A stretch of DNA of 59,428 nucleotides, taken from Chrysochromulina tobinii (lineage: Eukaryota). This document shows, piece by piece, positions 4,420 to 47,600 of the stretch (the stretch's first letter is position 1; each line of letters starts with the position of its first letter). The position numbers were made by a program, and so were the translations under genes. The stretch lies in the NCBI GenBank assembly GCA_001275005.1, contig JWZX01003409.1:62001-121428 (forward strand), read 5' to 3'. A model generated the notes under the pieces. It saw nothing but the letters and a program-made list of their open reading frames with translations, was not told the origin of the DNA and searched no databases.

Positions 4420-7382
4420 ATGCCGGCTACTTTCAAGCAAATCCAGGAGCTGCAGGCGCTGTCGGGGCGCAACCTGAAAGACTGCAAGGAGGCGCTCAAC
4501 AATCACGACTGCGACATCAAGGCCGCGTTGCACGCGTTGAACTCCGGCAGCAACCCCGATGCGGCGGCGGCGGCACCCGAGAGTGCTGAGAGTGCTCCTG
4601 CGAGTGCATCGGACAGTGCTGCAAACGAAGCGAAGGCAGCGTCAGAGAAGGCAGCCGCGGAGGCCGCTGCAGCTGAAAAGGCGGCAGCAGACGAGGCGGC
4701 CGCAGAGCAGGCAGCGGCGGAGAAGGTGGCTGCGGAGGCTGCAGAGAAGGCGGCAGCCGAGAAGGCGGAGGCGGAGAAGGCGGAGGCGGAGAAGGCGGAG
4801 GCAGAGAGGGCGGCGGCTGAGGAGGCAGCGGCCGAGGCGGCAGCGACTGAAAAAGCAGCAGCTGAGGCGGCGGCGGCCGAGAAGGCGGCGGCAGAGGCGG
4901 CTGCTGGCGAGGCGGCCGAGGCGGCGGCAAAGGCGGCGGCCGAGAAGGCGGCTGCTGAGAAGGCGGCGGCCGAGGCGGCGGCGGCCGAGGCGGCGGCGGC
5001 TGAGAAGGCGGCGGCCGAGGCGGCGGCGGCCGAGAAGGCAGCGGCTGAGGCGGCGGCGGCCGAGAAGGCGGCGGCCGAGAAGGCGGCGGCCGAGAAGGCG
5101 GCGGCTGAGAAGGCAGCGGCTGACAAGGCAGCCGAGGAGGAGCTCGCTCGTACGCTGAGTGTCGACTCACTCGCGGCGCGGGCGGCGGCTGAGAAGGTCA
5201 GACAGGATGCGGAGGCGCGTGCGGCCAAAGCGGCGGCGCGCTCGCCCCCGTCCGCCCCGTCGCCGCCGTCGGCCGCGTCGGCCGCCCCCCCTGTTGACCT
5301 CTCCGCGGAGCATGCTCGCATCCGAGGGCTGGCGGACGAGGCCGAGGCGGAGGCGGCGGCGCGCGCGGCCGCGGACGCCGCAGACGCCGCCGACGAGGCA
5401 GCTATCGGCTCATTGCTGATCCCCGCTCTGTCGACAGCCCGGCCCTCCAGCGCCCCCGCCGCTGTCGGTTCGACCCCCGCGGCAGCGGCGGCGGCGCGCT
5501 TGCCCGACGTGCCCAAGACGGCGCCCGACGTGCGCTGGCCGGCGGCGTCGCTCCTCAACCCGAGTCAGGATGCGGGCTTCGAGGTGGCCCTCAGCGATCT
5601 CGAGCCCTCCGAGATTCGTCAACTGCTCAGCCAGGATGGCGTGTCGTACACGGCGGACGACGAGGGCGATCTGACGCCCTTGGCGGTCGAGCTGCGTGCG
5701 CGCCATGCCGAGAGCGTCGCTGCGTGGCTGGCTGAGCGCCCAGGGAAGCACGCGCAGCCGCCCACGCCCTCGCTCGCCACGTCCTTGTGCCGCGTGGGCA
5801 CACCGGTCGCGCACCGCTGGACGCTCTGGCAGCGCGCCCTCGGCATCCACGTGATGCCGAGGCTCAAGCAGCAGGCGCCGCAGCTGCGCGCACTGCTCAG
5901 CACGGCGCTGCCCAATCAGGCAGAGCTCGAGGCGGACGCACAGGCGGCCCTGCTAGGCGCGCTCGGCGAGCGGGTGAGCGCGCTGCCCGACGGCGCGCTC
6001 GCGCTCCTGTGCCAGGAGTTCGCCTTCCACTTACTCGTGCTGCTCAAAAAGGCGCGCCTGCCTTATTCGGCCGATTTGGCGATCGCTCCGTTGCTCGCGC
6101 CCGTGCTGCTGCTTGCGGTGTTGCATGCGGGCGACCCGGCCGACGGCGCCCTCGGCCGCATGCAACTCGCCCTTCACCGAGCGGAGACGCTCAACGCCAT
6201 GTCGGCCGTGCTCGCCAAGTTGACCCCCGCGGTGATCGCAGGCGCTCCCTGGGGACTCGGGCCGACGGGCGCGCCCGCGACGGCGCCCAATGAGACGCTC
6301 CTGAGCCACGTGATGCTCTTCCTTCGATGGGAGTCTCCCGCGCTCGCTGAGCACCTACACGCGGCGCCTGGGATCTTGAAGGCACTCTCCCGCCTGATGC
6401 TTGGGCTGCTGGCGCCCGCGGCGGCGCCCGCGGCGGTCGTGCGCTTCATCGAGCTTGCGCTGTGGGAGTCTCCGACCGTGCCCAAAAGCCAGCCTGTCCT
6501 GCTGCTGTGCGCGCTGCTGCTGCGGGAGGAGACGCGCCTCCTCGGCGTGCCTGCGAGCAGCCTCGCGGGCACGCTCAGTGCCCAGCTGAGCGTGCCGAGC
6601 GTCGTGGAGGCCGATCGATTGCATGCTGCGGCCGCCGTGCTCAATACGACGCTACCCGTGACGCTGCGCGCCGCGCTCGACGCGGCTTGGTGTGCGGCTC
6701 GTCCGCCAGCGGCGTGCTTCGCGTGCGCTTGGCTCGAGCCGCCTGAGGTGCTCAGCAGCGGGGTGTGGGTGATCGACTTGAGATCGCATCGAGATTTTGA
6801 GGCAGCGCACTTTGCACTCACGTCGCACCTGCCGCCAGCCGAGGCGCGCGGGGCTGACGCGCGCGAGGCCGTGCGCCAGGAGCTCTTCGACATCTGTGCA
6901 GAGGGCGGCTTTACTCTCGCCTTCGTCACCGCCAACGACCCGAACGACGCCTCCGGCTCCAAGAGCGTCGTCGGCGCCGTCAAGAAGGGCAGCGCTCAGG
7001 GCAGCGCGGCTCCTGATGCGGAGCGGCTCACCTCCGAAGAGGTGCGCCTGCTCGTCCTCGAGATGAGGGATGATGGCCACTGATGGTGATTGATGATGTT
7101 CTGATGACCTCTGATGAGCTCCCTCATCAGGTGCGCATGGTCGTCCTCGAGTTTGTGCGCGCGGGCTTCCGCCACGTGGGCATCCTACGCGGTGGCCTCG
7201 CGGCGCTCTCCCCGGAGCAGCGCGTAGCCCTCGTGGCCTCCGACGTGCGCGGAGTGACGGTGGACGCGTCGAGCGAGCAGAACCCGAGTCGCCCGAGCAC
7301 TGCGGCGGCGCTGCGTAGTATGATGCCGCGGCTGCCCTCCCTTACGGCAAAGAAGGCCAAGGCGCCCATCCAAACGCTTTGA
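4420..7382 (+). CDS. TBC1D23-like protein (divergent TBC domain + rhodanese) with N-terminal EF-Ts-type UBA domain and Ala/Glu/Lys linker; exons 4420-7041, 7131-7382
   Basis: N-terminus [25 protein letters not shown] (EF-Ts N-domain-like). TBC-like [11 protein letters not shown] and [12 protein letters not shown]. Rhodanese [14 protein letters not shown] and [15 protein letters not shown]. Phase-0 intron at 7042-7130. Confidence 0.7.
4630..5140 (+). repeat. Coding low-complexity AAAEK / AAAE repeats
   Basis: Recurrent 15-nt units like gagaaggcggcggcc. Confidence 0.9.
7042..7130 (+). mobile_element. Introner-like intron (89 nt)
   Basis: Starts GTGCGCCTGCTCGTCCTCGAG, a copy of the downstream exon start GTGCGCATGGTCGTCCTCGAG (21 nt, 2 mismatches). 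Ends CTGATGACCTCTGATGAGCTCCCTCATCAG. Confidence 0.85.
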
Positions 7383-21161: not shown

Positions 21162-23351
21162 ATGCGAGCCGACCGGCGGCGCTCGTGGCGGCTTTCATCG
21201 CTCGAACTGTGCATTCTCTTGTGCATCGTTGTGCGACTCACACTTCTTTTGGTTGACAAAGGGGGCACTGGACTTCGAGTCATCCAAGCAGACTCCGTAG
21301 TCGAGTCGCGGAATGCACCGCGAGAGCTGTCTGTCAATGAGGCCATACGTCCAGCTCTGCCATCACTGTTGCCGCCTCCGCCGCCACCATCGCCCGAATC
21401 GAGCCCTGCCGTTATGCTCCTCGCAACCAGTCACGTGGCCAACACCATGGACCGTCGAGCACATCAGGCAGGTCCAGATGATGGTGCAACGGGGCCGCGT
21501 GAGCGTGAGCGAGAGGTGGGCACACTTGCTGGGTCGGAGCATGAGTACCGGAGCTGCTGTGCTCGCGCTTGGCGTGATCCATCAAGAAATGCGGCCATCG
21601 AGTTTTGCGACCAGGAAACGGACGCCACCGGCGATCGAGCAACGTCACAGCTCACGTGCTTCAGTGCTCCTTCCCTCAAGGCAACAGGCCACAGCTCTTC
21701 CTCGACCCCTGCCTGGTACTGTGACGCGCGACGTCTCGTGGTGAACACCAGCGCCGTGTCCATCGGCTCTGATGACCTCACCATCCCGACGCCCTCACAA
21801 AAGGGCCTCTGGCAGCGGCGCGCGCTGCTGCTCGACTGCCCGTTGCGTACGAGCGCGCTTAGCGAGCCGAGGCGCTTCGGGATGCTCCTGCGCCAACTGC
21901 TGCCCGTGCCGCTCGCGGAGCTCAGGGCCTCGTCTGTGGGGCGCGACGTGCTGGCGGGCGTGCTGGCGCGCCTCGGAACCGATGCGCACGGCGGCCAGGA
22001 CGAGGACAGTGAGGACGAGCCGACGATTGTCTTCGTGGCGCGCTACTCGGTCAAAAACTTCTTTCTGGCCCATTACGATCTTCTGCAGGTGCGTTGATTG
22101 CCACTGATGACCTGCCTTGCATGCAAGTGCTCATTCTGGCCCATTACGATCTTCTGCAGGTGCGTTGATTGCCACTGATGACCTGCCTTGCATGCAAGTG
22201 CTCATCGCCGCGCGTCCGACTCCCTCGAGCCTCTTCATCACGATCTTCTGCAGGTGGCGTCGATTGTTCTGCACGCACTCGGGCCGGAGCCGCGAGCGCG
22301 CACGCGCCTCGTCTTCATCCCTCCCGACAAGGCCAACCACGGCTGGTGGGGCCCGCAGAGGCTGCTCTGGGCGAGCTTCAGCGAGATTCCACCAGTCTCG
22401 TATGTGGAATGGCTTGCTGAGGAAAGGGCCCTGAGCGGCGCGGCAGGCGGCGGCGCGGGAGGCGGCGGCGCGGCGTTGAGTCATCGATCCGGAGCGCCGC
22501 AGACGCTGCTGCCGGTCCGCCGCGCAATCTTTGCCCTATCAGGCCTTCATTCCGTCTATGGTCGCGGATCGATCGGGCGTGCACTCGAAGGGGTCTGTGC
22601 GCCGTGCGCGGCAGCGGACGGCGCGACGAAGCGCCTCACGCGCGTCTCGGCGTTCTACCGGCTTTTCATCCAAGCGGTGCTGCACCGGACGGGCCTCTTC
22701 CAGCTGCCAGCGCCGCCGGCGCCGCTCGCCGCCACGGCTGCCGACGGCGGCGGTGGGAGAGACGCCCGAGACGACGCGTGGCTCGAAGGCGGGCTGTTGC
22801 GTGGCGTGTGGATCTCTCGGGGGAAGGGGCTCGGGCACGGGTACGGCAAGACTGTCGGCCGCCGGTGCCTCAACGAGCCCGAGGTGCTGCAGGCGCTCAA
22901 GAGCGCAGCCGTGGGACTCGCCCTCACGCCGCTCGAGCTGGCTGACGTGCCTTTCGCCGAGCAGCTGCAGCACTTTCGGCGAGCGGCGGTGGTGACCGGC
23001 ATGCACGGCGCCGGCTACGCGAACATCATCTTCCTCGCGCCGCGGGCGGTGGTCGCCGAGCTGTGCCCGCTGGGCTACTGCACCAAGTCGTACGAGCGCA
23101 TGTCCGCGCGCCTCGACCTCATCTACATGCGTTGGACCAACACGATCGCCGAGAACGCGAAACCAGGCTACGACACGGTCGTCGACGTGGGACAGTTCAC
23201 CAAGCTGATGCAACAAGCGGTGAGTGCGTTTCGGAGTGAGTCGCCTTCAGTAGCGTCGGACGAAGAACGCGGCGGCGCTGGGCACGTCGAGAAGGAGGAG
23301 GAGGAGGAGGAGGCAGAGACGACGTTCCTGATCGGATCGGATGATGACTAG
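21162..23351 (+). CDS. Glycosyltransferase family 61 (type II membrane); exons 21162-22088, 22254-23351
   Basis: N-terminal TM helix. RRCLNEPEV and PFAEQLQHFRRAAVVTGMHGAGYANIIFL..VVAELCP match the GT61 signature. Phase-0 intron. Confidence 0.85.
22089..22253 (+). mobile_element. Introner-like intron (165 nt) with 71-bp tandem duplication of the exon/intron junction
   Basis: GTGCGTTGATTGCCACTGATGACCTGCCTTGCATGCAAGTGCTCA occurs twice. The 3' end CATCACGATCTTCTGCAG copies the exon end CATTACGATCTTCTGCAG. Confidence 0.88.
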
Positions 23352-23641
23352 TGAACACACGCTCTCAGTTAACCGGCTCACAAGTCGATATTTGAGATTT
23401 GTGAAGAATCTTAATAAAGTGTGAAAACAACAAAACACGCACGCGCTCGGCCCGCCGGCACACCGCGCCTCCCGGCGCGGCTCGCGCGGCGGCCTCGGAG
23501 CGCGTCCCCATGCGCGGAGCATGCATGAAAGATGAATGCGGCAAGCACTCATGCTCACCCCATCCACCGCACCGAGCCACCGACTCGCCGGGCCGTGTGC
23601 TTGTCCGATCACAGTCAGACGTCGGGTCAGTCATAGGTCAG

Positions 23642-24611
23642 TCAGTGGGGCTCATTGCCGTCGGCCTGCGCAGCAAGAAGCGCGCCAATGTGCTCCGCAG
23701 CAGAAGTATGCGCTGCTTGCTCGCCCCCCACCTCGCCTTCCTCCTCGCCCTCCTCCTCCCCCTCATCCTCGACGTCCTCGCCCTCCTCCTCGCCCTCGTC
23801 GTCGGCCGTCGCGCTGCGCCTCCTCCGCAGCCTCGTTGAAGAGCACGCGCATCATGGAGTCAATGCGGCGTGTCGTGCGCAGCCGATCGGCCGCGAGACG
23901 CTCCCGGTTGTGCAGCTGCTCGGCCGTGGCGCGCCGCTCGCGAAGGTTGGTGACGATGAGCCCATGGAATCCATGGCTCTGTCCGAGATGATCTTCCACG
24001 CGAAAGTTGCGCGCGGCCTCGCGAAATGCGTCCCTGTGCGAGAGCTCGGGCTGCGCGGCCTTTATGCGTGCGACCTCGGTCCTCAAAAAGAGGTTGTACG
24101 CGCTCGTCCTCGACGGCGAGGTGAACGACCAGCCGAGATGCGCTCCGCAGCAGCAGTGAGCCATGCGCCACTCAAAGGGAGGGAACCAGCTGTGATCCGG
24201 CGACGGACGGCCCGAGAGGATGATGTGAGGTACGGGCACCGTGCGCACCACATCGAACCGCACAGCCCCGGGATTTGTCGCGCTGTAGGCCCAGTACTCC
24301 CGATCGAGCATGTCGAGCTCATACGAGAAGACGGCCGACTCGAGCGTCGTGGCCCGCTCGATCAAGAGCTCCTCTCGGGACACGATGGGGATGTTGCACG
24401 CGGCGCAGGAGAGCACCGGAATGTCGGCCTCCGGAATGTCGGGCACCGGAACCGCGTGCCCTGCGTCAATAAGAACAACCTGCCTCTGCAAATCTTCAAT
24501 CTGCTCTCTGAGCTCGATAAGTTGCTCTCGAGCCATGCCCTCAATCACGCCCTCAATCGCATCGTCAGATGACTGAAGCACGCGCACAACGTAATTGCCT
24601 GCAGGACCCAT
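23642..24611 (-). CDS. Cereblon-like CULT (Yippee/Mis18-fold) protein with inserted YABBY/HMG-like box and acidic tail; apparent +1 frameshift at 23816; start uncertain
   Basis: LSCAAC, NPGAVRFDVV, GRPSPDHSWFPPFEW, HCCCGAHLGWSF and FHGL match CULT. SAYNLFLRTEVARIKAAQPELSHRDAFREAARNF lies between GWSF and FHGL. The frame-corrected tail DDEGEEEGE... stops at 23642. Confidence 0.8.
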
Positions 24612-24780
24612 GGTGAGGCGCGCCTCGAACTCATGCTGCGGTACGTACTCCCCGTTAACATTATCCCCGACAGGACCAGGTTCTCCCCGACTGCCGTTAA
24701 CCTTCTCCCCGACTCCCCGACTGCCATCGCCAGCTCCGAGCCCGCTTGCGTGTCGACTATGAATTCGTCCGTCATTTCCC

Positions 24781-24843
24781 AAGTCAAGAAGTCAAGACAA
24801 GTCAAGTCAAGTCAACCTAAGCCTTGACTTGACTTTCACTTGA
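24781..24843. repeat. CAAGT / ACTTG pentamer repeats in inverted arrangement
   Basis: aagtcaagaagtcaagacaagtcaagtcaagtcaa is followed by cttgacttgact, between two divergent genes. Confidence 0.7.
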
Positions 24844-25018
24844 GCCCAGCAGATGTAACAGAAAACCCCTCATAACTTTCAAAGTGGTGTCGCCAATTGC
24901 CAAAATAGGCAGGCGATCACTCTGCCGTCCAGAGAACAAAATCGCGAGCACCCGACGGCCAAAATCCAGACCAACGCACTCCAATGGTGCGTCCTCCTCA
25001 GCGTATCGCCACCGCCAG

Positions 25019-26668
25019 ATGCTCACGATTCGTCTCCCGACCTCCACCCCCACCCCGACGCAGGCTCTCTCGTCGATCCTCAACTCTTTGTCAAGCACGC
25101 CGACCGGGCAGGAGCGAGACTTGTGCGCGTCCGCGACGCCGCGCGATGAGAATGCGGGGAAAAAGAGCGTGCGACGAAGCTTCAGCTGGGGCAAGAGCAA
25201 AAAGCGCGCGGAGAAGCGTGCGACCACTTCGCAGCCTGGGAAGACGGAGGTGATCTCGGTGGTGCTCTCTCGCGCACAGGCGACGAGCGAGCTCGGGCTT
25301 GAGCTGCACGAGGTGACCGGCGACGTGATCGTGAGCTACGTTGGCTCCATCCCCGACATCTCAATTGGTGACTGCATCCTTGCGATCGAGGGCCTCGAGC
25401 TGCTCTACCCGGGCGGCCCGGAGAAGCTGGAGGCGGCGCGCCAGGTGCTGGCAGATCCGACCGAGGGGGAGGAGGACCCGCACGCGCCCCAGCAGACAGT
25501 GGAGCTGACGGTCGAGAAGAACAGCATTCGCACAGAAGTGCTCAAGCGGCATGCGGCGCTGCGCGGCACGTCGCTCGACAGACTCGGCCTCACGCTCTGC
25601 CTCGAGGACTCGCACATAGTTGTGTCCGAAATGGACCCCAAGGGACTTGCAAGCAAGCAAGGGCGGATTGCGACAGGTGACCGTCTGGTGGGGATCAACG
25701 GGCGGGCGGTCAAGGACCTGGAGCACGCGATCGAGCTGCTGCAGAGCGACGACGCGAGCGAGCTCGAGGTTGAGCTCGATCTCATGTACGGCTTCCTCGT
25801 CCCCGAGAACCACGAGTTCAGCACTGAGCTAGGCTGCTATGTGCCCGCGAAGAAACCGCTGTGCGGGCTAGCGCGCGTGAAGCGCAGCCTGAGCTTCGGC
25901 AAGAAGAAGAAGCCCCCTCCCGCGCCGGAGCCGACGCCGCGCACCGCCGAGTCCGCCTCCACCGCGCCCGAGCTCAGCAGCCCGGACCCCGACTTCATCC
26001 CCGAGCCGAATCTGGAGCCGCGGCTCCTCCTGATCCCCAAGAACGAGGAGGGGCGAATCTGCGTCACGTTCCGCGCGCACGAGGTGACGGGCGAGCTGAT
26101 CATCTCGCAGATCGGCTCCAACTCGCCTGCGCAGATCGCGGGCGCCGAGGTGGGCGACCGCGTGCTCGCGCTCCAGGGCTCCATCTTCGAGCAGGGGGGC
26201 GAGGAGGACCTCGAGAACGCGCGCGTGGTCCTCGAGCAGTCCGCAAGCTCCCCGACCATTGAGATGATCGTCCAGACACGCGTGCGCACGGAGCGGCTCG
26301 AGTTTGGTCAGGAGTTTGTCGGCGGCCCCAAGAATAAGCTCGGCCTCACCTTCTACTCCTTCCCGAACGACGAGTTCGTGCGCATCACCAAGATGGTTGG
26401 AGCTGCGGCCAAGTCAGGCAAATTCGCCCTCGGTGATCGAATCGTTGCGGTGAACGGAATCCGCGTCAACCACGCGGAGACGCTCCAGGCCCACATCGCC
26501 GAGTTCTGCAAGCGCGACGAGTATGTCGACTTCGAGGTCGCTCTCGGCTACCAGCCCGAGGAGGGCTTGTGGTATGGCAAGGATGTGTCCGTGGGCTCTG
26601 ATGAGCAGCCGGAGGAAAAGAAGAAGCCCAAGCGCAGCTTCTCATTTGGCCGACGCACGGTGCACTGA
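25019..26668 (+). CDS. Multi-PDZ scaffold protein (about 4 PDZ domains as 2 duplicated tandems)
   Basis: LGLEL, LGLTL and LGLTF carboxylate-binding loops. GDCILAIEG, GDRLVGING, GDRVLALQG and GDRIVAVNG. HEVTG is repeated. Confidence 0.85.
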   Translation: MLTIRLPTSTPTPTQALSSILNSLSSTPTGQERDLCASATPRDENAGKKSVRRSFSWGKSKKRAEKRATTSQPGKTEVISVVLSRAQATSELGLELHEVTGDVIVSYVGSIPDISIGDCILAIEGLELLYPGGPEKLEAARQVLADPTEGEEDPHAPQQTVELTVEKNSIRTEVLKRHAALRGTSLDRLGLTLCLEDSHIVVSEMDPKGLASKQGRIATGDRLVGINGRAVKDLEHAIELLQSDDASELEVELDLMYGFLVPENHEFSTELGCYVPAKKPLCGLARVKRSLSFGKKKKPPPAPEPTPRTAESASTAPELSSPDPDFIPEPNLEPRLLLIPKNEEGRICVTFRAHEVTGELIISQIGSNSPAQIAGAEVGDRVLALQGSIFEQGGEEDLENARVVLEQSASSPTIEMIVQTRVRTERLEFGQEFVGGPKNKLGLTFYSFPNDEFVRITKMVGAAAKSGKFALGDRIVAVNGIRVNHAETLQAHIAEFCKRDEYVDFEVALGYQPEEGLWYGKDVSVGSDEQPEEKKKPKRSFSFGRRTVH

Positions 26669-26931
26669 GGGCGTGAGGCCGACGGGAACCGACAGCTTGG
26701 CCGTTGTATGTAGTCGTTGGGTGCGTGTCGCAGTCCGGGGCGGTTGGGCCGTCTGCCCGTCTCCTTTATTCGCCCGTGGGGGCGTCGTCGTTCGTTATGT
26801 TCGTTTTGGCGAGAAGCAGAGCTTCCGGGGGCATGTAGAACGGTTAAAGTGATGAATGAGGTTTTTTGAGCCGACTCTTAACAGCCAGTTCACACTTCCA
26901 CTTTCCCAGAACCTACCTGTCGACGGCGCCC

Positions 26932-29035
26932 ATGCCTGAGAAGCAACTCGAGAAGCCTCTTCCTGACAGCAGTATCAGCAGCGACGAAAGTGTCAACGCG
27001 GTTCGCTCGCCCCAAAGGCGAGCCGTGGGAGCCGAGACAGCCGGTGACACTGTGACCGGGCTCGAGGACCTGACGCCTGCTGAGCTGGAAAGTGTTTACG
27101 TCGTTCAGGCGGACGCCGAAAATGATGCGCACGTTACCGGCGCGATGGAGGAGCCGCCTCCGGGCATCGTTATCTCGTACATGCTGCAGGAGGAGATCCG
27201 TGAGTCGGAGCTGCTCGATGACAAAGATCTCAACGAGGTGGACAGGCTCACCTCGTTGATTGATGAAGAGTTACACGATGAGCCCGTCGAAGCTATCACA
27301 CTCGAGGAAGCTTCGCAGGTTGACAAGCAGATCATCGAGGAGAAGCTTGAGCAGATGATCGAGCTGTACGACAACAAGGAGCTCATGGGGTCCATGCTCG
27401 AGTCCACGCTGCAGCCTGAGGATGCTATCCCGTACACGCTCGACGAGCTCACGGTGAAAGACCCTGCAGTTGCAGAAAGCCTGCCGCCCGCGGTTGCTGC
27501 GGCAGTCTACGAAAAGTACGGCTGCCTTCCGATCGCCGCCGGTGGACCCTTGGCGATCAGAGAGCTCGCTCAATCGTACATCGCATCGTCCGACATCGAC
27601 GACTCGTTTTACATCATGGACCTCGGCAACGTCCAGCGCTTGTACGACTCGTGGCACACGGCGATGCCACGCGTCACGCCATTCTACGCGATGAAGTGCT
27701 CGCCGATGCCCGCCCTGATCGACGTCCTTGCGGTGAACGGCTGCGGCTTTGATTGTGCCTCGGCGGCTGAGATCCAGCTCGCGCTCGACGCCGGCGTCTC
27801 GCCCGACCGCATCATCTTCGCGCACCCGGCCAAGCGGCCGTTTGACATCCGTTTCGCGGCGTCCAAGGGCGTGTGCATGACCACGTTCGACTCCATCGTT
27901 GAGCTCGACAAGATTGCCAAGTGGCACCCGAACGCGCAGTGCGTCCTCCGCATCCGTGCCGATGACCCGCTCCGCGCTGCATGCAAGTGCTCACCACGAC
28001 GCCCCCTCCTCTCCCCACAGGTGCGTCCTGCGCATCCGCGCCGATGACCCCGAGGCTGGCATCTCGTTTGGCATCAAGTACGGTGCGAACCTCGACGAGT
28101 ACGAGACGCTCATCTCCCACGCGAAAGACATCGGCCTCGACATGATCGGAGTTTCGTTCCACGTCGGCTCGCTTGCCAAGTCTGGCAAGGCCTTCTACCG
28201 CGCCATCGAGTGCGCGCGCAAGGCCTTCGACGTTGGCACCGCCTGCGGTTTCCACTTTTCGCTCCTCGACATCGGCGGCGGCTTCACGGGGCGCTTCAAC
28301 TCGTTTGGAATCGTCCAGTCGATGGTCGGCGAGATCCCGGCCTACATCAACGAGGCGCTCGAGAAATTCTTCGGCGCGGACACGCCCTTCGGCGACCTGA
28401 GGGTCATCGCTGAGCCCGGCCGCTTCTTCGCCGAAGCGTCGATGCATCTTGCCTGCCACGTGCACTCCGTGCGCAACCGCGTCGATCGAGCCTCGGCCGA
28501 CGACCCCGAAACGCTCGTCCCGACGTGTGACTACCTCATCTCCGACGGCCTGTACGGCTCGTTCAACTGCGTCGTCTACGATGGGGCAAAGCCCCGAGCT
28601 TGGCTCCTCCCGGGGCCCAACCTGCCCCCGATGGACACCGAGCTCAAGCGCTCCACAGGTCAGTACCACTGATTATCACTGATCACCACATGCGACTCGA
28701 TGGGCTGCGTCTTCACTCTGATTGCCATTGATTGCCATTGATTTCCTCCCTCATCACTGATTGCCTCCCTCATCACAGTCTTCGGCCCCACATGCGACTC
28801 GATGGACTGCGTCTTCAAGGACGTCATGCTGCCCCAGCTGCGCGTGGGCGACTGGCTCCTCTTTCCGCACTTTGGAGCGTACACCCTCGCCGGTGCCACC
28901 AACTTCAACGGCATCCAAAATGCCAACCCGAGAATCTTTTACGTCTGCTCGCAGTCTTCGGTTGACCAGGAAAACGCGGTGGTCATGTGGGCGTGCGAGA
29001 TGGAGAAGGCGCCCTCCTCGATCGTCGCCACGTAA
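26932..29035 (+). CDS. ODC: Ornithine decarboxylase (fold III PLP); exons 26932-27938, 28021-28658, 28779-29035
   Basis: PFYAMKC (PLP lysine), GFDCAS, VLRIRADD, VSFHVGS, LLDIGGGF, IAEPGRFF, DGLYGSFNC, FGPTCDSMD and GAYT. Confidence 0.93.
27939..28020 (+). mobile_element. Introner-like intron (82 nt)
   Basis: The first 30 nt copy the next exon start (2 synonymous-position mismatches), followed by TGCATGCAAGTGCTCACCAC...CCCCACAG. Confidence 0.88.
28659..28778 (+). mobile_element. Introner-like intron (120 nt) with internal 30-nt copy of downstream exon
   Basis: 28696-28725 matches exon 28788-28817 (1 mismatch). It carries iterated CTGATTGCC and CCTCCCTCATCAC modules. Confidence 0.85.
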
Positions 29036-29380
29036 AAATTTTTCGCTCGCGTGCATTCAGGTGAACGCGCGGATCTCTAGCAACCGGGAAAAACTGGCCC
29101 ATCCCTACTTTTTCCCGGTTGCTAAACAGATCCTAGATGCTAGATCTCGCGGTTGTTCATCGTTGGTCGTTGAGGAGCACAACCTCACGTCTGAGAAGAG
29201 AGAAGTACATTCAAGAAACTACAGTTTGGGCCTGACTCGACGTGTGTGCTTGTGTGTTAAGCGACCCGGATCCGTGAAACGGGAGCGCTTCACAGAAGGT
29301 CCAGAGCTGCAGTCCAGACGCTCAGTCCATCGCGGCTGTCAGGAAGTGACGAAACTGACTGACTGACTGTCGAAGCATAA

Positions 29381-30781
29381 TTGGCGTCCGTCTGGCATCA
29401 AACGCGTCGGCTCGCTCGCCGCATTTCGCGCGTTCACACCGGCTCGCGTGCGAGCAGCACTGCCATCTCCGCCGATCTCGATGAGGCCGCGCGGCTGATA
29501 TCGCTCGAGGAGGCGCACGGCGCGTTCAACTACGCGCCGCTGCCAGTTGTGCTTGAGCGCGGCCTGGGCGTGCACGTCTGGGACATCTCCGGGCGCCGCT
29601 ATCTCGACTTCCTCTCAGCATACTCGGCTGTCAACCAAGGCCATTCGCACCCCAAGATCCTTGACGCCTTGCAGCGGCAGGCGGCCAAGCTGACGCTCAC
29701 ATCGCGTGCCTTCCACAACAACGTGCTTGGCGAGTACGAGCGTTTCGTGACCGAGTATTTTGGCTACGACCGCGTGCTCCCGATGAATACCGGTGTCGAG
29801 GGCGGCGAGACCGCGCTCAAGCTCGCGCGCCGCTGGGGCTACGACGTCAAGGGCATCGCCAAGGACGAGGCTCTGGTACTCTTCTGCACCCACAACTTTT
29901 GGGGGCGCACGATCTCTGCGTGCTCGTCGTCGTCCGACCCGAGCTGCCGTGCCGGCTTCGGCCCCTACCTACCCGGCGTCCCCTTGGTGCCGTACAATGA
30001 CCTTGCGGCGCTCGAGGCCGCCTTCGCCCAGGACGGGGCGCGCATCGCTGGCTTTATGCTCGAGCCGATCCAGGTGCGTTGATTGCCAATGATGACCTGC
30101 CTTGCATGCAAGTGCTCACCACAGCGCATTGGACTCCCTCGAGCCATCCAGGGCGAGGCGGGCGTGGTGGTGCCTCACGAGGGCTACCTCCGAGGCGTGC
30201 GCGAGCTGTGCACGCGCTACAACGTGCTGATGATCGCCGACGAGGTGCAGACGGGGCTGTGCCGCACGGGCAAGATGCTCGCCTGTGACCACGAGCACGT
30301 GAAGCCGGACCTCCTCATCCTCGGCAAGGCGCTCTCGGGTGGCGTGTATCCAGTGAGCGCAGTGCTCTCGAGCGACGAGGTGATGCTCACGCTCCGCCCG
30401 GGTGAGCACGGTTCCACGTTTGGTGGCAACCCTCTCGGGTGCGCCGTGGCCATGGCGGCGCTCGAGGTGCTACGCGAGGAGCGGCTCGCCGAGAACGCGG
30501 CCCTCATGGGGGAGAGGCTGCGCGCGGGGCTCGCGGCGATCGGGAGCGATGCGGTCACAACGGTGCGCGGCCGGGGGCTGCTCAACGCGATCGTGATTCG
30601 ACCAGAGGGCGAGAAGCGGAATGCGGGCGCGCTCTGCTATGCGCTCAAGGACGTGGGGCTTCTTGCCAAGCCCACGCACGAGCACATCATCCGACTGGCG
30701 CCGCCGCTCATCATCACGGGCGCGCAGATCGACGAGGCCGTCGAGATTATCGCCAAGGAGACGCGCCGCATGTTTGGATGA
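29381..30781 (+). CDS. OAT: Ornithine aminotransferase (class III), mitochondrial-type leader; exons 29381-30073, 30152-30781
   Basis: [81 protein letters not shown] and [10 protein letters not shown]. Confidence 0.95.
30074..30151 (+). mobile_element. Introner-like intron (78 nt)
   Basis: The first 45 nt match the GT61 intron with one mismatch. The end CTCGAGCCATCCAG resembles the exon end CTCGAGCCGATCCAG. Confidence 0.9.
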
Positions 30782-31392
30782 ATCGGAAGCGTGGGAAGAG
30801 GAGTGGGAGAGTCTTGTTCGGTGGTCGAGAGAACCGCGGCGGAATTCAGACACGCAATCTGCTTCACGTTAAAAAAAACGCGGGGGGCGTCAGGTGGGCT
30901 TCAGACCTCAGCGTAGAGGCTGACTTTAAAGGCCGGACAGGTTAAACGAAGGTGTCTCACGACTCACCTGTGGCTGCGTGCTGCTGAGCGAGCGAGTACT
31001 CAGTACTTGTGTTGACCGAGGGGAGCGGAGCCGCCCTTGAAGAGCGCGGGGGGACCGACGACCGCGACGAAACTGACTGGCTGACTGACGTGTGGGAATT
31101 CGCAATTCGGTGATCGCATCTCAAAGTCCACGAATCGACGGAGCGCCGGCCGCGCCCCACTCCTTGAGGGTGGGCTCGCGGAGCACCGGTTGCTCTAACT
31201 CTCACCGCTTAAGCTCCTGAGTTTCCAAGAGATTTGGTTGCAGTTCTTCTCTGTGTCTCGTTTCACTGTTAACAAGTAAGCCCAAAGTCCACATCGCTCT
31301 CCCGCGTCAACACACCACGCCCATTGCCGGGCGGTCTATAGTGGTAGGTGGGTACTGGAGAGGAGCGGCGGCGCGTCGCCCAGCACGTCCCC

Positions 31393-34354
31393 ATGCTCCT
31401 GCTCTTTGGCTTTGTCGCAGCCATCTCGAGCTTCACGCACATCGCACGCCTCACGCCGGCTACGTGCAGTGGTCGCGGCGCTCCGCAGAGGCGTGCAACG
31501 ACCGGCGTGGCGGCGAGACTGAACGCAGGCGACGACACTGCGCCTGGCTTGTCAATATCTGGCGCCTTCGATTCGGGCAACATTAAGCTCGTGGAGGTGC
31601 AGGGGCGTGAGGCTGTTCGTCTGCGCATCATGTACGACCCTCGCACGGAGCTCGAGGGGTGCAACCACATGCAGTGGTTCGCCTTCCGCTCGACGGTGCT
31701 CCACCCTTATGCGGCCGCCGACGCGTGGTCGACGACTTACGAGATCGTCAACGCTGGCCTGTGCTCCTACATGAAAGGATGGGACGGGCTCGAGGTCTGC
31801 GTTTCGCACGACCTCCAGACCTGGCGGCGCGTGCCGTCGACGCGGTACGATGCGCCGAGCGGCACGCTCCGCTGGAGCTGGATGCACAATGCCGCGCAGC
31901 CGACGACGTTCTTCGCGTACTTTGAGCCGTACCCGTACGATCGGCAGCTGGCGTTGGTGATGCGGTGCGCGTCCGCGACGGCGCCCGGCCTCGAGGTGAG
32001 CTCGCTCGGCCAGAGCCTTGCATGCATGTGCTCACCACGGCGCCATGCCTTCCCCACAGGTGAGCTCGCTCGGCCAGAGCCTCGGCGGACGCGAGATCGA
32101 CGTGATCACGGTCGGCACTGGCCCGTTGCATGCGTGGATCATCCATCGGCAGCACCCGGGGGAGCCGCAGGCGGCCTTTTTCGCCGAGGGGCTGCTGGCG
32201 CGCCTTCTCGGGCTCGAGCGGCAGGGTTCCATCGACGGCCTCACCGCGCAGATGCTCGAGGCCTTCACGTGGCACGTCGTCCCATCGATGAATCCGGATG
32301 GCGGTAGCGCCGGCCACCTGCGCACCAACCTCGCCGGCGCCAACCTGAATCGTGAGTGGGCTCCTACAGGCAGTTACGAGGCGCCGTCCCTCGAGCGCTC
32401 GCCCGAGGTCTACCACGTGCTTCGAGCCATGCAGAGGACAGGCGTCGACTTTTTCTGCGACGTGCACGGCGACGAGGGCCTTCCGTTTTGCTTCTGCGCG
32501 GGCAATGAGGGCACGCCCAACTGGGGGCCGCGGCTGCGCGCGCTGCACGGCGCCTTTGTGGGCGCGTATGCGCGCGCCAACCCGGACATGCAAGCTCGGT
32601 TTGGGTACGAGCCCGACTCTCCTGGAGGAGCGAACCCGGCCGTTGGTGGGAATCAGGTCGGCATGCGCTTTGACTGCCTCGCTGTCACGTTGGAGATGCC
32701 GTTCAAGGACAATGCGGCCAATGCGGCCGCACGCCGCAGCGGCAAGGCATTCGACGGGCACCGATGCGCGATGCTCGGCGCCTCTCTTGTCGACGCGCTC
32801 GCCCACGTGCACACGGCTCTGCGCGGAGTGCCCGTGCCGCGCTTCGAGCTGCCAGACGATGCGTACGTGCGCCCGACTGAAGACGTGAATGAGATTCGGG
32901 CCTTCCTCGACGCTCAGGCGCGCGCAGGTGAGCAGGCGGCACGCGGCAGTGCGGCAGCGCCCGCGGCAGCGCGTGAGACGGCCAGTGCGGGGATGGCGTG
33001 GGCGTCGACGGCTCCTGTTGAAGCGGCGCCCGCGGCGGCGCCCGTGGCGACGGTTCCAATGCAGTCGGGCTTTGGAGCCGCCGCTCTGGCAAAGGCGGTG
33101 GAGGCGGCAGTGGCGCCGGCGGCGGTGGCGACTGGCGCGTCCGCGCAGCCCGAGGCGCCGCCAGGTGTGGCGGCGCCCCGGGTCTCCCTTGGAGATGGCG
33201 AGGAATCCTCCAAGGAGGATGCGACGGGGCGGCCGGTGGTGGAGGCGGCGGAGAGAGAGGAAGGCACCGTTCAACGCGCAGTCAATCCCGCGGGCCAGCC
33301 CGCGGTCACGCCCGCGGTCAGTCCCTATCCCGCGATGTCGTCGACCACGATGAGCAGGGACGGGCAAGGCGAGGGGGCGGGCGGGGGCGCGCAAGGGAAT
33401 GAAACCACCATCCTGTGGTCGAACAACGATATGAAGGGGACGCTCTGGACGAGCGCCGAGCAGCGCGAGCAGTGGTATGACCGCTCCAAGGCGTACTGGG
33501 AATGGGATGGGTTGCATGGGAAGGGCAAGACCAACGACGGTGTGATGAGCGGCATTGGGCCTCTGCACGACGCTGACATTGCGGACTCGCTCGCTTTCAT
33601 CACGGGCGGCCTGCAACCCATCTGGCCAGCGCCCTTCTTCTTCCCAGACGCGCGCGCTCTCGATGTAGGTGCCGGGATAGGGCGTGTGGCGGGCGCGCTG
33701 CTGCTCGACCTCTGCGGCGAGGTCGACCTGGTCGATGGCTCCGCGTCCCATCTTCATGAGGCCCGCGCGGCGCTGGGCGAGCCGCTGGGCGAGCCGTTGG
33801 CGCCGGGGACGTCCGAGCCGATCGGAGGCAGGCGCGAGACGATCGGTCGCGGGCGGGTGGGCCGTTATCTGTGCTCGGACCTGCAGGACTTTGTGCCGCT
33901 CGCGTCGCACCCTTACGACCTGATCTGGATCCAATGGACGACCATGTACTTGACCGATGCTGACCTCACGCGCCTGCTGCGCGACTGCCGTGAGGCGCTC
34001 GCGCCGGGCGGTGTGATCGTGCTCAAGGACAATGTGATCGATGAGCTCAAGGGACCGAAGGGTCTTGTGGACGGACGGTATGTCGTCGATGAGCTCGATG
34101 CGAGCGTGAGCCGCACGCGCTCGCACTTGCTTGACCTGGTGAACGAGGCAGGCCTGGCGATTGTGGCCTCGGCCACGGCCAACCTCAAGTCCGAGGAACT
34201 TGACGGCCTCCTCAAGAACAATGGATGGTCCGAGATGCACCCAGTCGCGATGCTCGCGCTTCGGTCCGCAGAGGGCCCGCAGGTTGCGAGATCCGAAGAT
34301 GGCATTGACAATGGCGACGGTGGAGGCAGTGTGTTTGGATGGGTGTTTAGGTGA
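31393..34354 (+). CDS. M14 (Nna1/CCP-type) zinc carboxypeptidase fused to an NTMT1-like alpha-N-methyltransferase; signal peptide; exons 31393-31995, 32060-34354
   Basis: Peptidase: FDSGNI, QWFAF, FAYFEPY, RQHPGE, MNPDG, RTNLAGANLNREW, DVHGDE, TLEMPF. Methyltransferase: YWE..TNDGVMSG, ALDVGAGIGRV, LQDFVP, YDLIWIQW, YLTDADL, GVIVLKDN. Confidence 0.85.
31996..32059 (+). mobile_element. Introner-like intron (64 nt)
   Basis: The first 23 nt (GTGAGCTCGCTCGGCCAGAGCCT) are identical to the next exon start, followed by TGCATGCATGTGCTCACCACGG...CCCCACAG. Confidence 0.9.
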
Positions 34355-44670: not shown

Positions 44671-47600
44671 ATGCCACCGACAGTGATCAGCCGCGCAAAG
44701 GCCAACGCGGGCAGAGGCGCTCCTGTCGAGTCCTCTTCTGCCGCCGCCATTCCCGACTCGTCGACCGACGCTCTCGAAAAGGTCCGTCAGCAAGCCCGCC
44801 GCCTCGTCGAGCAGCAGCAGCAGCTGCAATGCGCCCTGGCCTATGGCAAGCTGTGTGAGCGTCGGATCTTGCAACTGCAGCCCGACCACGCCCTACCTCT
44901 GACCGCCGAGCACATAAAGCAGCAGCAGGAGGAGCCGCGGCCAAGGCCGGGGCTCCCACCCAAGCCGCAGCCGAGCGGCGGCGGCGGCAGCGAGACAGTG
45001 CCGAGCAGCGAGCTGGACGCCATGCGCGAGCGAGCCGAGCTCGCTGAGGCGGCGTTAGCCCGCGCCAGAGGGAGACTTCCAGCCCGCCGCTCTCCGACAC
45101 GCGCCGCCAACGCGGGCGAGCCGTCCACCAGCGGCGCTGACGGCAGCAGCGGCAGCAGCGGCAGGACTGCCACCGCTGAGGATCAGCTGCAGATCGCGAG
45201 CGTCGAGGCGCTGCGCGAGGCGCTGCGCGCGGCGCGCGAGGAGACGGAACGCCAGCGCAAGGTGGCGGCCACGGCGGCGCGCGAGTCGATGAAAGCGCTC
45301 GAGGAGGCGGCGCGCACGGCGGGAATGCCCAACGGGAGCGCGCAAGTGCTACGAGCGCATGCGGCGAGCGAGCGCACCATCAACGAGCTCAAGGCACGTG
45401 TCGCCGCCGTCGAGAGTGCCGACGCGGCTCTTCGCGAGCAGCTGAGGAGCGCGCATGCGGACGCGCAGCTCGCTGCGGGAGCCCTCAAAGCCGAGCGCGA
45501 AGGGCACCAGGCGACGATGGCGAAGCTGGCGGACGCCGAGGCGGCCGCACGCGAGGCTACGAAGCAAATGGCCGCCGCGGCCAGCGCACGCACGCAGCAC
45601 GAGGTGGAGCGCGCTGCGTTGCTCGAAGCGTACGAGGAGCTCGAGGGCACGGCCCGCAGGGCTGCGAGCAAAGCCGAGCAGACGGAGAGCGCGGCAGCGG
45701 AGGCGGCGACAACGCGCGATCAGGCTGTGGTGGCGCTGAAGCGGGCGGAGGCGGCGCGCGAGGCGGCCGAGAAAGAGGCGGCCGCGCTGCGCCTCGAGAT
45801 GCAGAGTGCTCAGTACAGCGCGGCCACAGAGCTACAGAGTGCTCAGCGCTCGCTAGCCGAAGCCGTTGAGAGGGAGAGGGCGGCCGAGGCGAAGGCGAGC
45901 AAGGCGGCGGCGGCGGCAGCGGCCGTGCTGGAGGCGGCGGACAGTGCAGCGAAGGAGCGGCGCGCCCTCGAGAGCCTGCATGACGAGGCGAGCACCGCGC
46001 TCGAGACGGCGCGTGCCCAGCTCGCGCACGCGCGCAAGCAGGTTCTCGAGGCGGAGGCGGGCGCAGCTGCGGCGAAGGCGAAGGCTGAGGAGGCCATCGC
46101 CGAGGCGCAAGAGCAAGCGAATGCCGCGAAGGCGCAGGCCAAGGCGGCCATCGCCCAAGCGCGGATGGAGGCAGAGGTGGCCATCAGTGAGACGCAGGCG
46201 CAGTACAAGGCGGCGATCGCCGCCGCGCAGGCACCGACCAAGGCGGCGATTGCCGAGGCGCAGGCAGAGGCGAAGGCGGCCATGAACGAGGCGAAGGCGG
46301 AGACGATCAAGGCGCGCTCGGAGACGGCAGAGGCGGCGGCCAAAGCGAGCGCGGCGCGGGCTCAGGCGGAGTCATGGGCGCGGGCGGAGGCAAAGGCAGC
46401 GGTCGAGGCGGCGGATGCAAAGGCAAAGGCGGCTGTCGAGGCGGCGGAGGCGAAGGCGAAGGCGGCTGTCGAGGCGGCGGAGGCGAAGGCGAAGGCGGCT
46501 GTCGAGGCGGCGGAGGCAGCATCCAAGGCGACCAGCGCGCGGGCGCAGGCGGAGGCCAAGGCGGCCATCGAGGCGGCAGAGGCGGCCTCCGCGCGGGCGC
46601 AGGCCGACGCGTTGCGCAGGGCGTCCGAGGAGGCCGAGCGAGCTCTGGCGGCGCTCCGAGCCCAGCTCACTGAAGCGCACGCGCAGGCGGCGGTGGCGGC
46701 CGCGAACGCCGCCGCGAGCGAGAAACGCGCCGAGGCGGCGGAGGCGGCGGCCGTGACCGCGGGCCAGGGCGCGGCTGCCGCGGCCGCGAGCCAGAACGCG
46801 ACGGCGTCGGCGATCGCCTCGGTGGCCGAGACGGAGGCGCGGCTGCGAGCGCGCGCCGAGGCAGCGGAGGGGGCGCTCGCGGCGGCGCAGGCGGAGGCGG
46901 CGAGCGCGCGCGACGAGCAGTCGATTGAGCGCAAGGGTCTCCTCTCGGAGCTGCATGCTCTCCATTTGCAAGCCTCCAAGCTCGACGAACAGGTGCGCCT
47001 TGGGCAGCAAGCGCGGCTCGTTGAGGAACAGAAGCGCCAAGCGGTGCTCGGTGAGCGAGAGGCGGAGCAACGGCAGGCGACGCAGCTTCGTGCGCAGCTC
47101 GACGACTCTCATCGAGTGCTGATGACCAATGATGACCAATGATGACCAATGATGACCACTGATTGCTTCCCTCATCAGGTGCGCAGCTCGACGATCTGCA
47201 GCAGCAGCTCGAGGCAGCGCGCGCCGCCCATGCCGCTGAGCTCGCTGCCGTCGAGATCAAGCTGTCCGCCGAGCGTGCCGACTCGCAACGCTCAGCGATT
47301 GGCGCGGCGGCAGCGCAAGCGGCGCAGCTGCGCGCGGCGGCCGAGATGGCGGCGGCGCAGGCGTCGGAGAGGGCAGCTCGCAAGGAGCTTGATGCCGCCG
47401 CCGAGGCGCGAAAGGCCGCCGTCGAGCGCGCGCTTAGTGAAGCGAAGCGAGAGGCGGCGGAGGCTGCGGCGGCGGCAGTGCGCAAGGCAGTCTCGGACGC
47501 GGAGGTGCTCGCGCAGGCGGCCGAAGCGCGACCCTGATGACGTCTGATTGCCTCGCTCTGATGACGTCTGATTGCCCCCCTCATCAGGTGCTCGCGCAGG

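Follow-up and report, generated by a model that had tools for sequence, protein, structure and literature searches.

The window analyzed here is a 59,428-nt stretch of GC-rich eukaryotic DNA from Chrysochromulina tobinii (contig JWZX01003409.1, positions 62,001 to 121,428, forward strand), which contains a glycosyltransferase 61 gene and an ornithine aminotransferase (OAT) gene, two non-homologous genes that carry introns of nearly the same sequence. A first-pass annotation, made from the letters alone, had named these genes, taken both similar segments for introns, and read their resemblance as direct evidence of recent copying between unrelated genes. The Glyco_transf_61 and Aminotran_3 domains were recovered, and the removal of 22089-22253 and 30074-30151 reopens the respective reading frames, so both the gene identities and the intron assignments hold.

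Exon 1 of the glycosyltransferase gene (21414-22088, plus strand, assuming a start at the first ATG in its open frame) is in frame with exon 2 (22254-23351; PF04577, E 4.7e-12) across a 165-nt intron (22089-22253), which if retained would introduce an in-frame stop at its third codon. Homologs align to the junction and are contiguous there, 11 of 21 reading HYDLLQ|VA or a variant across it; RNA contigs give no cover at this intron and are uninformative on its splicing. The OAT intron (30074-30151, plus strand, 78 nt, GT..AG) follows an exon end (30059-30073, codons L-E-P-I-Q) that belongs to the motif EPIQGEAG, found in 10 of the 10 closest homologs shown. This intron recurs in an OAT paralog on a separate contig, L037 (below, the second OAT copy), and is skipped exactly in RNA contigs from three of four runs. 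As these contigs carry variants of the second copy on both sides of the junction, we infer the splicing of the window's own copy from its paralog.

The 45 nt at 22160-22204 recur at 30074-30118 with a single mismatch (44/45), and a downstream sequence, GACTCCCTCGAGCC, is present at both 22218-22231 and 30132-30145, as had been annotated; a gapless alignment of 22160-22231 with 30074-30145 matches at 65 of 72 positions (E 1.6e-20 within the window). A third copy of the 45-mer (22089-22133) lies in the first of two perfect 71-bp tandem units (22063-22133 and 22134-22204, together 22063-22204, plus strand), each composed of 26 nt of exon end and the 45-nt element head, so that the unit straddles the glycosyltransferase exon-intron junction. 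Another assembly of this stretch (L017 and L019) has three such units rather than two and is otherwise 100% identical over 19,962 nt.

The 45-mer cannot single out the glycosyltransferase-OAT pair, because an unrelated gene, L030, matches the glycosyltransferase copy equally well (44/45), against 45/45 for the second OAT copy and 44/45 for the OAT copy in the window. It is the consensus head of a high-copy intron family. One metagenome scan returned 41 stretches, 40 of which are of the family type and represent approximately 15 distinct regions; L027 was read as a chance match. The counts given below cover the window and 40 metagenome loci picked by one pattern, and the runs containing the stretch are labelled as mixed-culture metagenomes and metatranscriptomes. 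In 233,842 non-redundant bp we counted 150 module hits, and the summed DNA contig depth at the module was ~33,000 versus 62 for single-copy sequence in X1 and 18,700 versus 37 in X7, an excess of ~500x that is not a copy number. The abundance of copies disposes of the possibility, raised in the annotation, that only these two exist and reflect a chimeric assembly. In having similar introns in non-homologous genes and in many copies, the family agrees with the broad definition of an introner. Two matches in prokaryotic genomes lack family context and were read as chance, and a single match to a viral contig, which is GC-rich, has a family acceptor near its end and encodes three open reading frames (ORFs) without Pfam domains, was read as host DNA rather than as a viral carrier.

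The family head runs from the initial GT through GACTCC (~65 nt); in the glycosyltransferase intron, head and core end in GACTCC at 22160-22223 (plus strand). In the class to which this intron and the OAT intron belong, the family supplies the 5' splice site, while the intron tail is a copy of the intron's own upstream exon and provides the 3' splice site. Thus 30138-30151 repeats the OAT exon end at 14 of 15 nt (15 of 15 in the second copy), and 22236-22253 repeats 22071-22088 of the glycosyltransferase exon at 17 of 18. Such an upstream-exon copy reaches a score of 8 or more in 9 of 11 curated loci and in 0 of 110 mismatched pairs; the curated set replaced an earlier donor-anchored null, compromised because it included an internal tandem and a compound intron. 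Members of a mirror class take their 3' end from the family (CCCCACAG or CCCTCATCAG) and begin with a copy of the downstream exon, which was detected in 45 of 70 introns compared with 0.7% of 1,500 random pairs. Excluding nine introns in tandem arrays leaves 39 of 61, with copies of 12-58 nt (median 24) that are 95% identical, and many of the targets lack an upstream AG. Because the intron at position 770 of L025 has family sequence at both ends, the two classes look, in sequence comparison, as if each were a truncated form of a single ~75-nt intron in which the same core is retained. Across 45 copies, conservation of this core is 96-100% starting with its first G, save for two variable positions (89% and 73%), whereas upstream of the core it is at most 62%. 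In the OAT intron the core occupies 30104-30122 (plus strand), from GCATGC to GTGCTCACCAC, with sharp bounds; given the branch-site consensus yUnAy, CTCAC is the likely branch site. The core opens with (T)GCATG (30104-30115), a sequence equal to the animal RBFOX motif, and this segment is able to form a 4-bp stem and a GCAA loop, most of the variation falling at two loop positions.

The mirror class is represented several times on the plus strand of the window. Intron 1 of the ornithine decarboxylase (ODC) gene (27939-28020) consists of a 30-nt downstream-exon copy (28/30), the core, and CCCCACAG, and a carboxypeptidase-gene intron (31996-32059) has a 23-nt exon copy; RNA contigs show the former spliced in runs X14 and X17 and the latter in X17, bringing to three, with the OAT intron and its paralog variants, the family members spliced exactly in RNA. 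Further members lie at 7042-7130 (21-nt exon copy, CCCTCATCAG end), 47090-47178 (16-nt copy) and 47505-47587 (28-nt copy). ODC intron 2 (28659-28778) is built of TGATTGCC-type repeats with an internal 30-nt downstream-exon copy (29/30), and loose ends of RNA contigs show its splicing. On the minus strand, the intron of a UDPGP-domain gene (1456-1706) contains 57-bp tandem repeats and ends in a 14-nt upstream-exon copy; its removal opens the frame, and PF01704 matches on both sides. Not every intron belongs to the family, since one spliced intron of 77 nt, located close to the 5' end of a PDZ gene (24987-25063), yielded neither family module nor exon copy.

Two sites provide a comparison of filled and empty states. 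The window's OAT gene has a single 24-nt stretch at 30299-30322 (plus strand), which in the second OAT copy flanks both sides of an extra 193-nt intron. ODC intron 2 is absent from a paralog, in which a DNA contig of single-copy depth joins 28644 to 28778. Both empty sites occur in paralogs only and are compatible with gain as well as with precise loss; between close assemblies we saw no presence/absence of a whole intron. An X7 DNA contig apparently lacking the second OAT-paralog intron looks like a paralog mosaic and was left unused. The ODC and OAT genes adjoin on the same strand (26932-30781), and each has another copy elsewhere; of the OAT homologs with a species name that were looked up, that of Phaeocystis cordata is closest (80% identity), which makes a haptophyte source most likely. 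The OAT open frame starts with TTG (29381-29383) ahead of a transit-peptide-like stretch, and its first in-frame ATG lies deep in the enzyme domain, leaving a non-ATG start, an unseen upstream exon or a decaying copy as options.

What sets the glycosyltransferase-OAT pair apart is a G at +3 together with the 9-mer CTCGAGCCT immediately after GACTCC (22224-22232, plus strand). The 9-mer equals the start of the OAT exon copy (9/9 in the second OAT copy, 8/9 in the window); it is followed by three unexplained bases and then by the glycosyltransferase intron's own 18-nt exon copy. At the position of CTCGAGCCT other family members have locus-specific sequence, and we therefore rejected CTCGAGCC as part of the element; the similar CTCG in L009 is that locus's own exon copy. 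CTCGAGCC(T) is the start of the OAT exon copy yet is located in the glycosyltransferase intron, where, by sequence comparison, it is likely to be carried-over donor flank; in the second OAT copy the 15-nt repeat is perfect, and its codons L-E-P belong to conserved OAT sequence. The background probability of the 9-mer, with its first three bases taken as given, is ~1e-3. Among ten introns compared across genes, the prefix shared after GACTCC is 8-9 nt for this pair, 25 nt for L002-L030, 6 for L003-L028a, and no more than 4 for the others. The G at +3, common to the glycosyltransferase intron and both OAT copies, gives a 6-nt CAGGTG match to the glycosyltransferase target.

An ancestral OAT intron was probably the donor and the glycosyltransferase gene the recipient. 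Transfer in the reverse direction appears unlikely; it keeps some weight because return microhomologies of 5-7 nt, of the kind that could yield such a 9-mer, occur in L003, L036b and L036c. The glycosyltransferase intron differs from that of the second OAT copy at 6 of 73 positions, and the two OAT introns differ from each other at only three, in paralogs whose exons are ~95% identical; the link is therefore likely to be older than the OAT duplication. Copying between non-homologous genes, as annotated, is supported, but by the host-derived tail and not by the 45-mer on which the claim had been based, and the word recent was too strong. The suggestion that these two introns approximate a master element fits their first ~65 nt, which resemble the full-length family intron; it fails for their last 14-30 nt, which are host-exon copies, and the donors seem to have been introns of the ordinary kind (L030 to L002; L001 intron 441 to intron 1207).

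L002 and L035 carry 97 nt extra relative to L009, a locus 98% identical to them, and 42 nt of this extra sequence come from the unrelated L030 intron, including 32 nt identical to the L030 exon end. The extra sequence also repeats the recipient head, and both flanking heads bear a variant private to L002. L002 and L030 have no flanking homology, and the copied tract stops exactly at the donor 3' splice site. Read from the sequence, this pattern is what a double template switch would predict: exit at the homologous core, copying of the donor to its AG, and return upstream. In L001, intron 1207 contains 4 nt of the exon copy of its neighbour, intron 441, joined at a 4-nt microhomology. A proposed carry-over from L001 to L003 (8/9 nt) was dropped, as L003's own exon explains it through a 7-nt microhomology. 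Introns that resemble each other most also tend to share a region: an intron has its best match within its own region about three times as often as expected, in 15 of 35 cases (4.9 expected, p 2e-4) in one set and in 10 of 29 (3.3 expected, p 0.004) in another. Shared filler upstream of the core is marginally enriched in same-region pairs (2/83 versus 0/512 at 8 or more matches, p 0.02; 2/83 versus 2/512 at 5 exact matches, p 0.10).

From the shared core, the long and variable duplications, the two mirror classes, the carried flank, the local bias and the splicing of several members, all of which we observe, we propose with moderate confidence that new introns arise as local copies of existing ones, made through two template switches in the course of which the target is duplicated. 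Synthesis of DNA starting from a nick or break would switch to a donor intron at an AG|GT microhomology, copy 40-75 nt of it, sometimes into the donor's own exon copy, and return to the recipient at a second microhomology, upstream or downstream of the exit point, thereby duplicating 8-40 or more bases of the landing site. Selection would retain only the products in which the branch-site core and one splice site are present and which are spliced cleanly, and the direct repeats could then promote tandem expansion and precise loss. Neither a dedicated transposase nor a master copy would be required. The 24-nt duplication that distinguishes the filled from the empty OAT site speaks for this proposal, as does the tandem expansion of whole units. 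These units (exon copy plus intron) are repeated 2-6x in L013, L016, L023, L034, L036 and L039, in numbers that vary between assemblies, and give back-to-back introns with zero-length exons.

Several observations weigh against template switching between DNA copies. The 9-mer could be due to chance (about 1% across the loci compared, by our own estimate) or to return microhomology in the reverse direction. The six differences between the glycosyltransferase intron and that of the second OAT copy all fall within one 13-nt middle stretch (chance ~1e-5 if evenly spread), where the former is nearer the family consensus, and a simple one-step copy is insufficient to explain this. Eight of the 11 curated introns were chosen because they fit a pattern that includes GACTCC, and their boundaries were placed manually. 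Mean same-region similarity was not significant for the B class (p 0.12) and reached significance only for the second class (the set of 29). At the variable junction of mirror-class B, only 5 of 24 introns overlap the consensus by 2 or more nt, the true donors being unseen. Neither a copying enzyme nor its template came to light, and one of the two boundaries coincides in every case exactly with a donor splice site. The 78 adjacent module pairs all run in the same orientation, and of 80 clusters that could be scored 67 have sense-coding flanks and none is clearly antisense, in a set from which 16 of 96 clusters were dropped for want of clean flanks and which partly overlaps the training genes.

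This strict sense orientation is explained as well or better by an RNA-templated process, which we consider possible, if rather unlikely: a reverse transcriptase (non-long terminal repeat (non-LTR), Penelope-like or a repair polymerase) would prime at a staggered cut and use an excised intron or a pre-mRNA as template. Copying would begin at the 3' end of the intron in the mirror class, or internally and run to its 5' end in the glycosyltransferase/OAT class. Sense orientation, exact splice-site boundaries and same-gene bias would follow naturally, as would the end of the L002 tract at the donor 3' splice site, and target duplication of variable length, described in the available part of PMC9977147 as a mark of non-LTR insertion, is found here. 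However, the constant ends are splice sites and lack the poly(A) or simple tail of a non-LTR retroposon, and nothing points to a tRNA- or 5S-derived head, Rfam having no match in 21500-32500 at E up to 1. One core would need two priming modes, and in L002 the switch points fall within long homologous stretches and the head of the recipient is present twice. No reverse transcriptase domain, and likewise no transposase or Rep domain, was found in a scan of 125 ORFs at least 200 aa long (49 of 63 in the window and 76 of 173 in the loci), which represent a small part of the genome.

A non-autonomous HUH element, similar to a Replitron or Helitron and capable of being spliced, is an improbable source. 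Its Rep protein would paste the left end after an AG and, by imprecise termination, carry along parent flank. According to the portions of Craig 2023 (PMC10288648) available to us, Replitron-1 of Chlamydomonas reinhardtii and Replitron-N1 insert directly after RG and have variable, RG-including duplications and a fuzzy end traceable to the parent, the cause of the fuzzy ends and variable duplications of Replitron-1 being unknown, and putative Replitrons have been reported in two haptophytes. The glycosyltransferase/OAT class displays these three of the four Replitron-1 signatures (the fuzzy end and variable duplication also in L002/L030), and the sharp boundary of the core and its possible 4-bp hairpin would suit such an element, but splicing demands the AG regardless. 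The hairpin is itself weakly backed: 44 copies have five stem changes and 15 loop changes, none two-sided, and folding was no better than for shuffled sequences. Replitron-1 avoids both coding sequence and introns. Whereas Replitrons, in the same portions of that source, measure 0.9-3.6 kb, encode a Rep transposase, end in terminal direct repeats and seldom occur in coding sequence, the copies described here are introns of 55-100 nt in which the fuzzy end falls on either side of the same core. An alignment of 12 introns revealed no short direct repeats at both termini, and no transposase appeared among the scanned ORFs.

It is very unlikely that old introns were homogenised by gene conversion alongside independent local tandem duplications, or that the assembly is chimeric. 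The variation in tandem copy number between assemblies would agree with this, and the uneven spread of the glycosyltransferase-OAT differences suggests patchy conversion; nevertheless, two introns are absent in paralogs at otherwise matching sites, RNA splicing is exact, the OAT intron recurs on a separate contig, and the duplications adjoin splice sites far more often than chance allows. Least tenable is a classical introner, that is, a MITE-like DNA transposon with a single master sequence including CTCGAGCC and a short fixed duplication, even though introner families of 70-110 nt have been catalogued in haptophytes, and in Chrysochromulina one family brings its own 5' site and derives its 3' site from a 4-bp duplication (available part of Gozashti et al. 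2022, PMC9860276): the duplications of 8-58 nt already contradict it by their spread, the sequence after GACTCC is locus-specific, one end of each intron always being so, and terminal inverted repeats are lacking, with no stable pairing of the ends (z 0.1-1.7).

As far as the accessible portions of the published work extend, the family shares with introners, known from the genomes of Chrysochromulina, Prymnesium, Phaeocystis and Haptolina, the occurrence of similar short introns in unrelated genes and the derivation of one splice site from the element and the other from a target duplication. It differs in that published duplications are fixed for each class at 3-8 nt (Roy et al. 2020, 10.1101/2020.10.14.339549), whereas here they are variable and on either side of one core, and the copies carry parent flank and cluster locally. 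The main text of Gozashti et al. 2025 (PMC12130899), in the part available, mentions neither haptophytes nor Replitrons. Double-strand-break repair in Daphnia, tandem genomic duplication and intron transposition (PMC3443670; PMC4202315, each in part) likewise feature flanking direct repeats, exon-derived splice sites and intron-intron homology. In contrast to these routes, the present family, a single high-copy one, combines a long duplication with an insert templated from another intron in approximately two thirds of its sampled introns; duplication of an AGGT-bearing exon alone would not suffice, as each intron has foreign family sequence. Searches of the literature accessible to us, which lacks most subscription papers, listed none on haptophyte introns with long variable duplications, and the family may be among those already catalogued. 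The feature is real, and it is a new variant of introner-like intron gain.

Other repeats lie nearby. An intergenic 48-bp sequence at 30986-31033, identical in L013 and 92% identical in L016, has a mean DNA depth in its bin of ~11,000 versus 62 for single-copy sequence and probably represents a repeat of very high copy number that has no connection with the introns. It is followed at 31131-31286 by a dispersed intergenic repeat of ~155 bp (91% identical to L033), possibly a MITE. A 1,615-bp AT-rich insertion (L013:17653-19267), absent from the otherwise identical L024, may be an alignment-end effect or a polymorphic element. The window also has a minus-strand ORF at 23766-24791 with a match to the YABBY C-terminal domain (E 1e-10) and an AAGTC microsatellite at 24780-24815 that is also present in L013 and L030.

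How new spliceosomal introns originate is still an open question, and published introner work credits transposons with fixed short duplications. In this family, new introns look as though they were copied locally from ordinary ones, in two forms that mirror each other and with parent tags that give direction. Intron transposition thereby becomes directly measurable, with parent, distance, and age from the decay of the duplication, and the flanking repeats predict that gain and loss are reversible. Scans limited to fixed short offsets or to end-to-end identity would undercount or misclassify such families. We suggest, tentatively, that most introns of this alga may stem from a chain reaction that needs no transposase and in which any intron can template a new one nearby, duplicating the recipient site and leaving a barcode of the parent; if so, the whole genealogy of its introns, with the direction and distance of each jump, would be readable from sequence.

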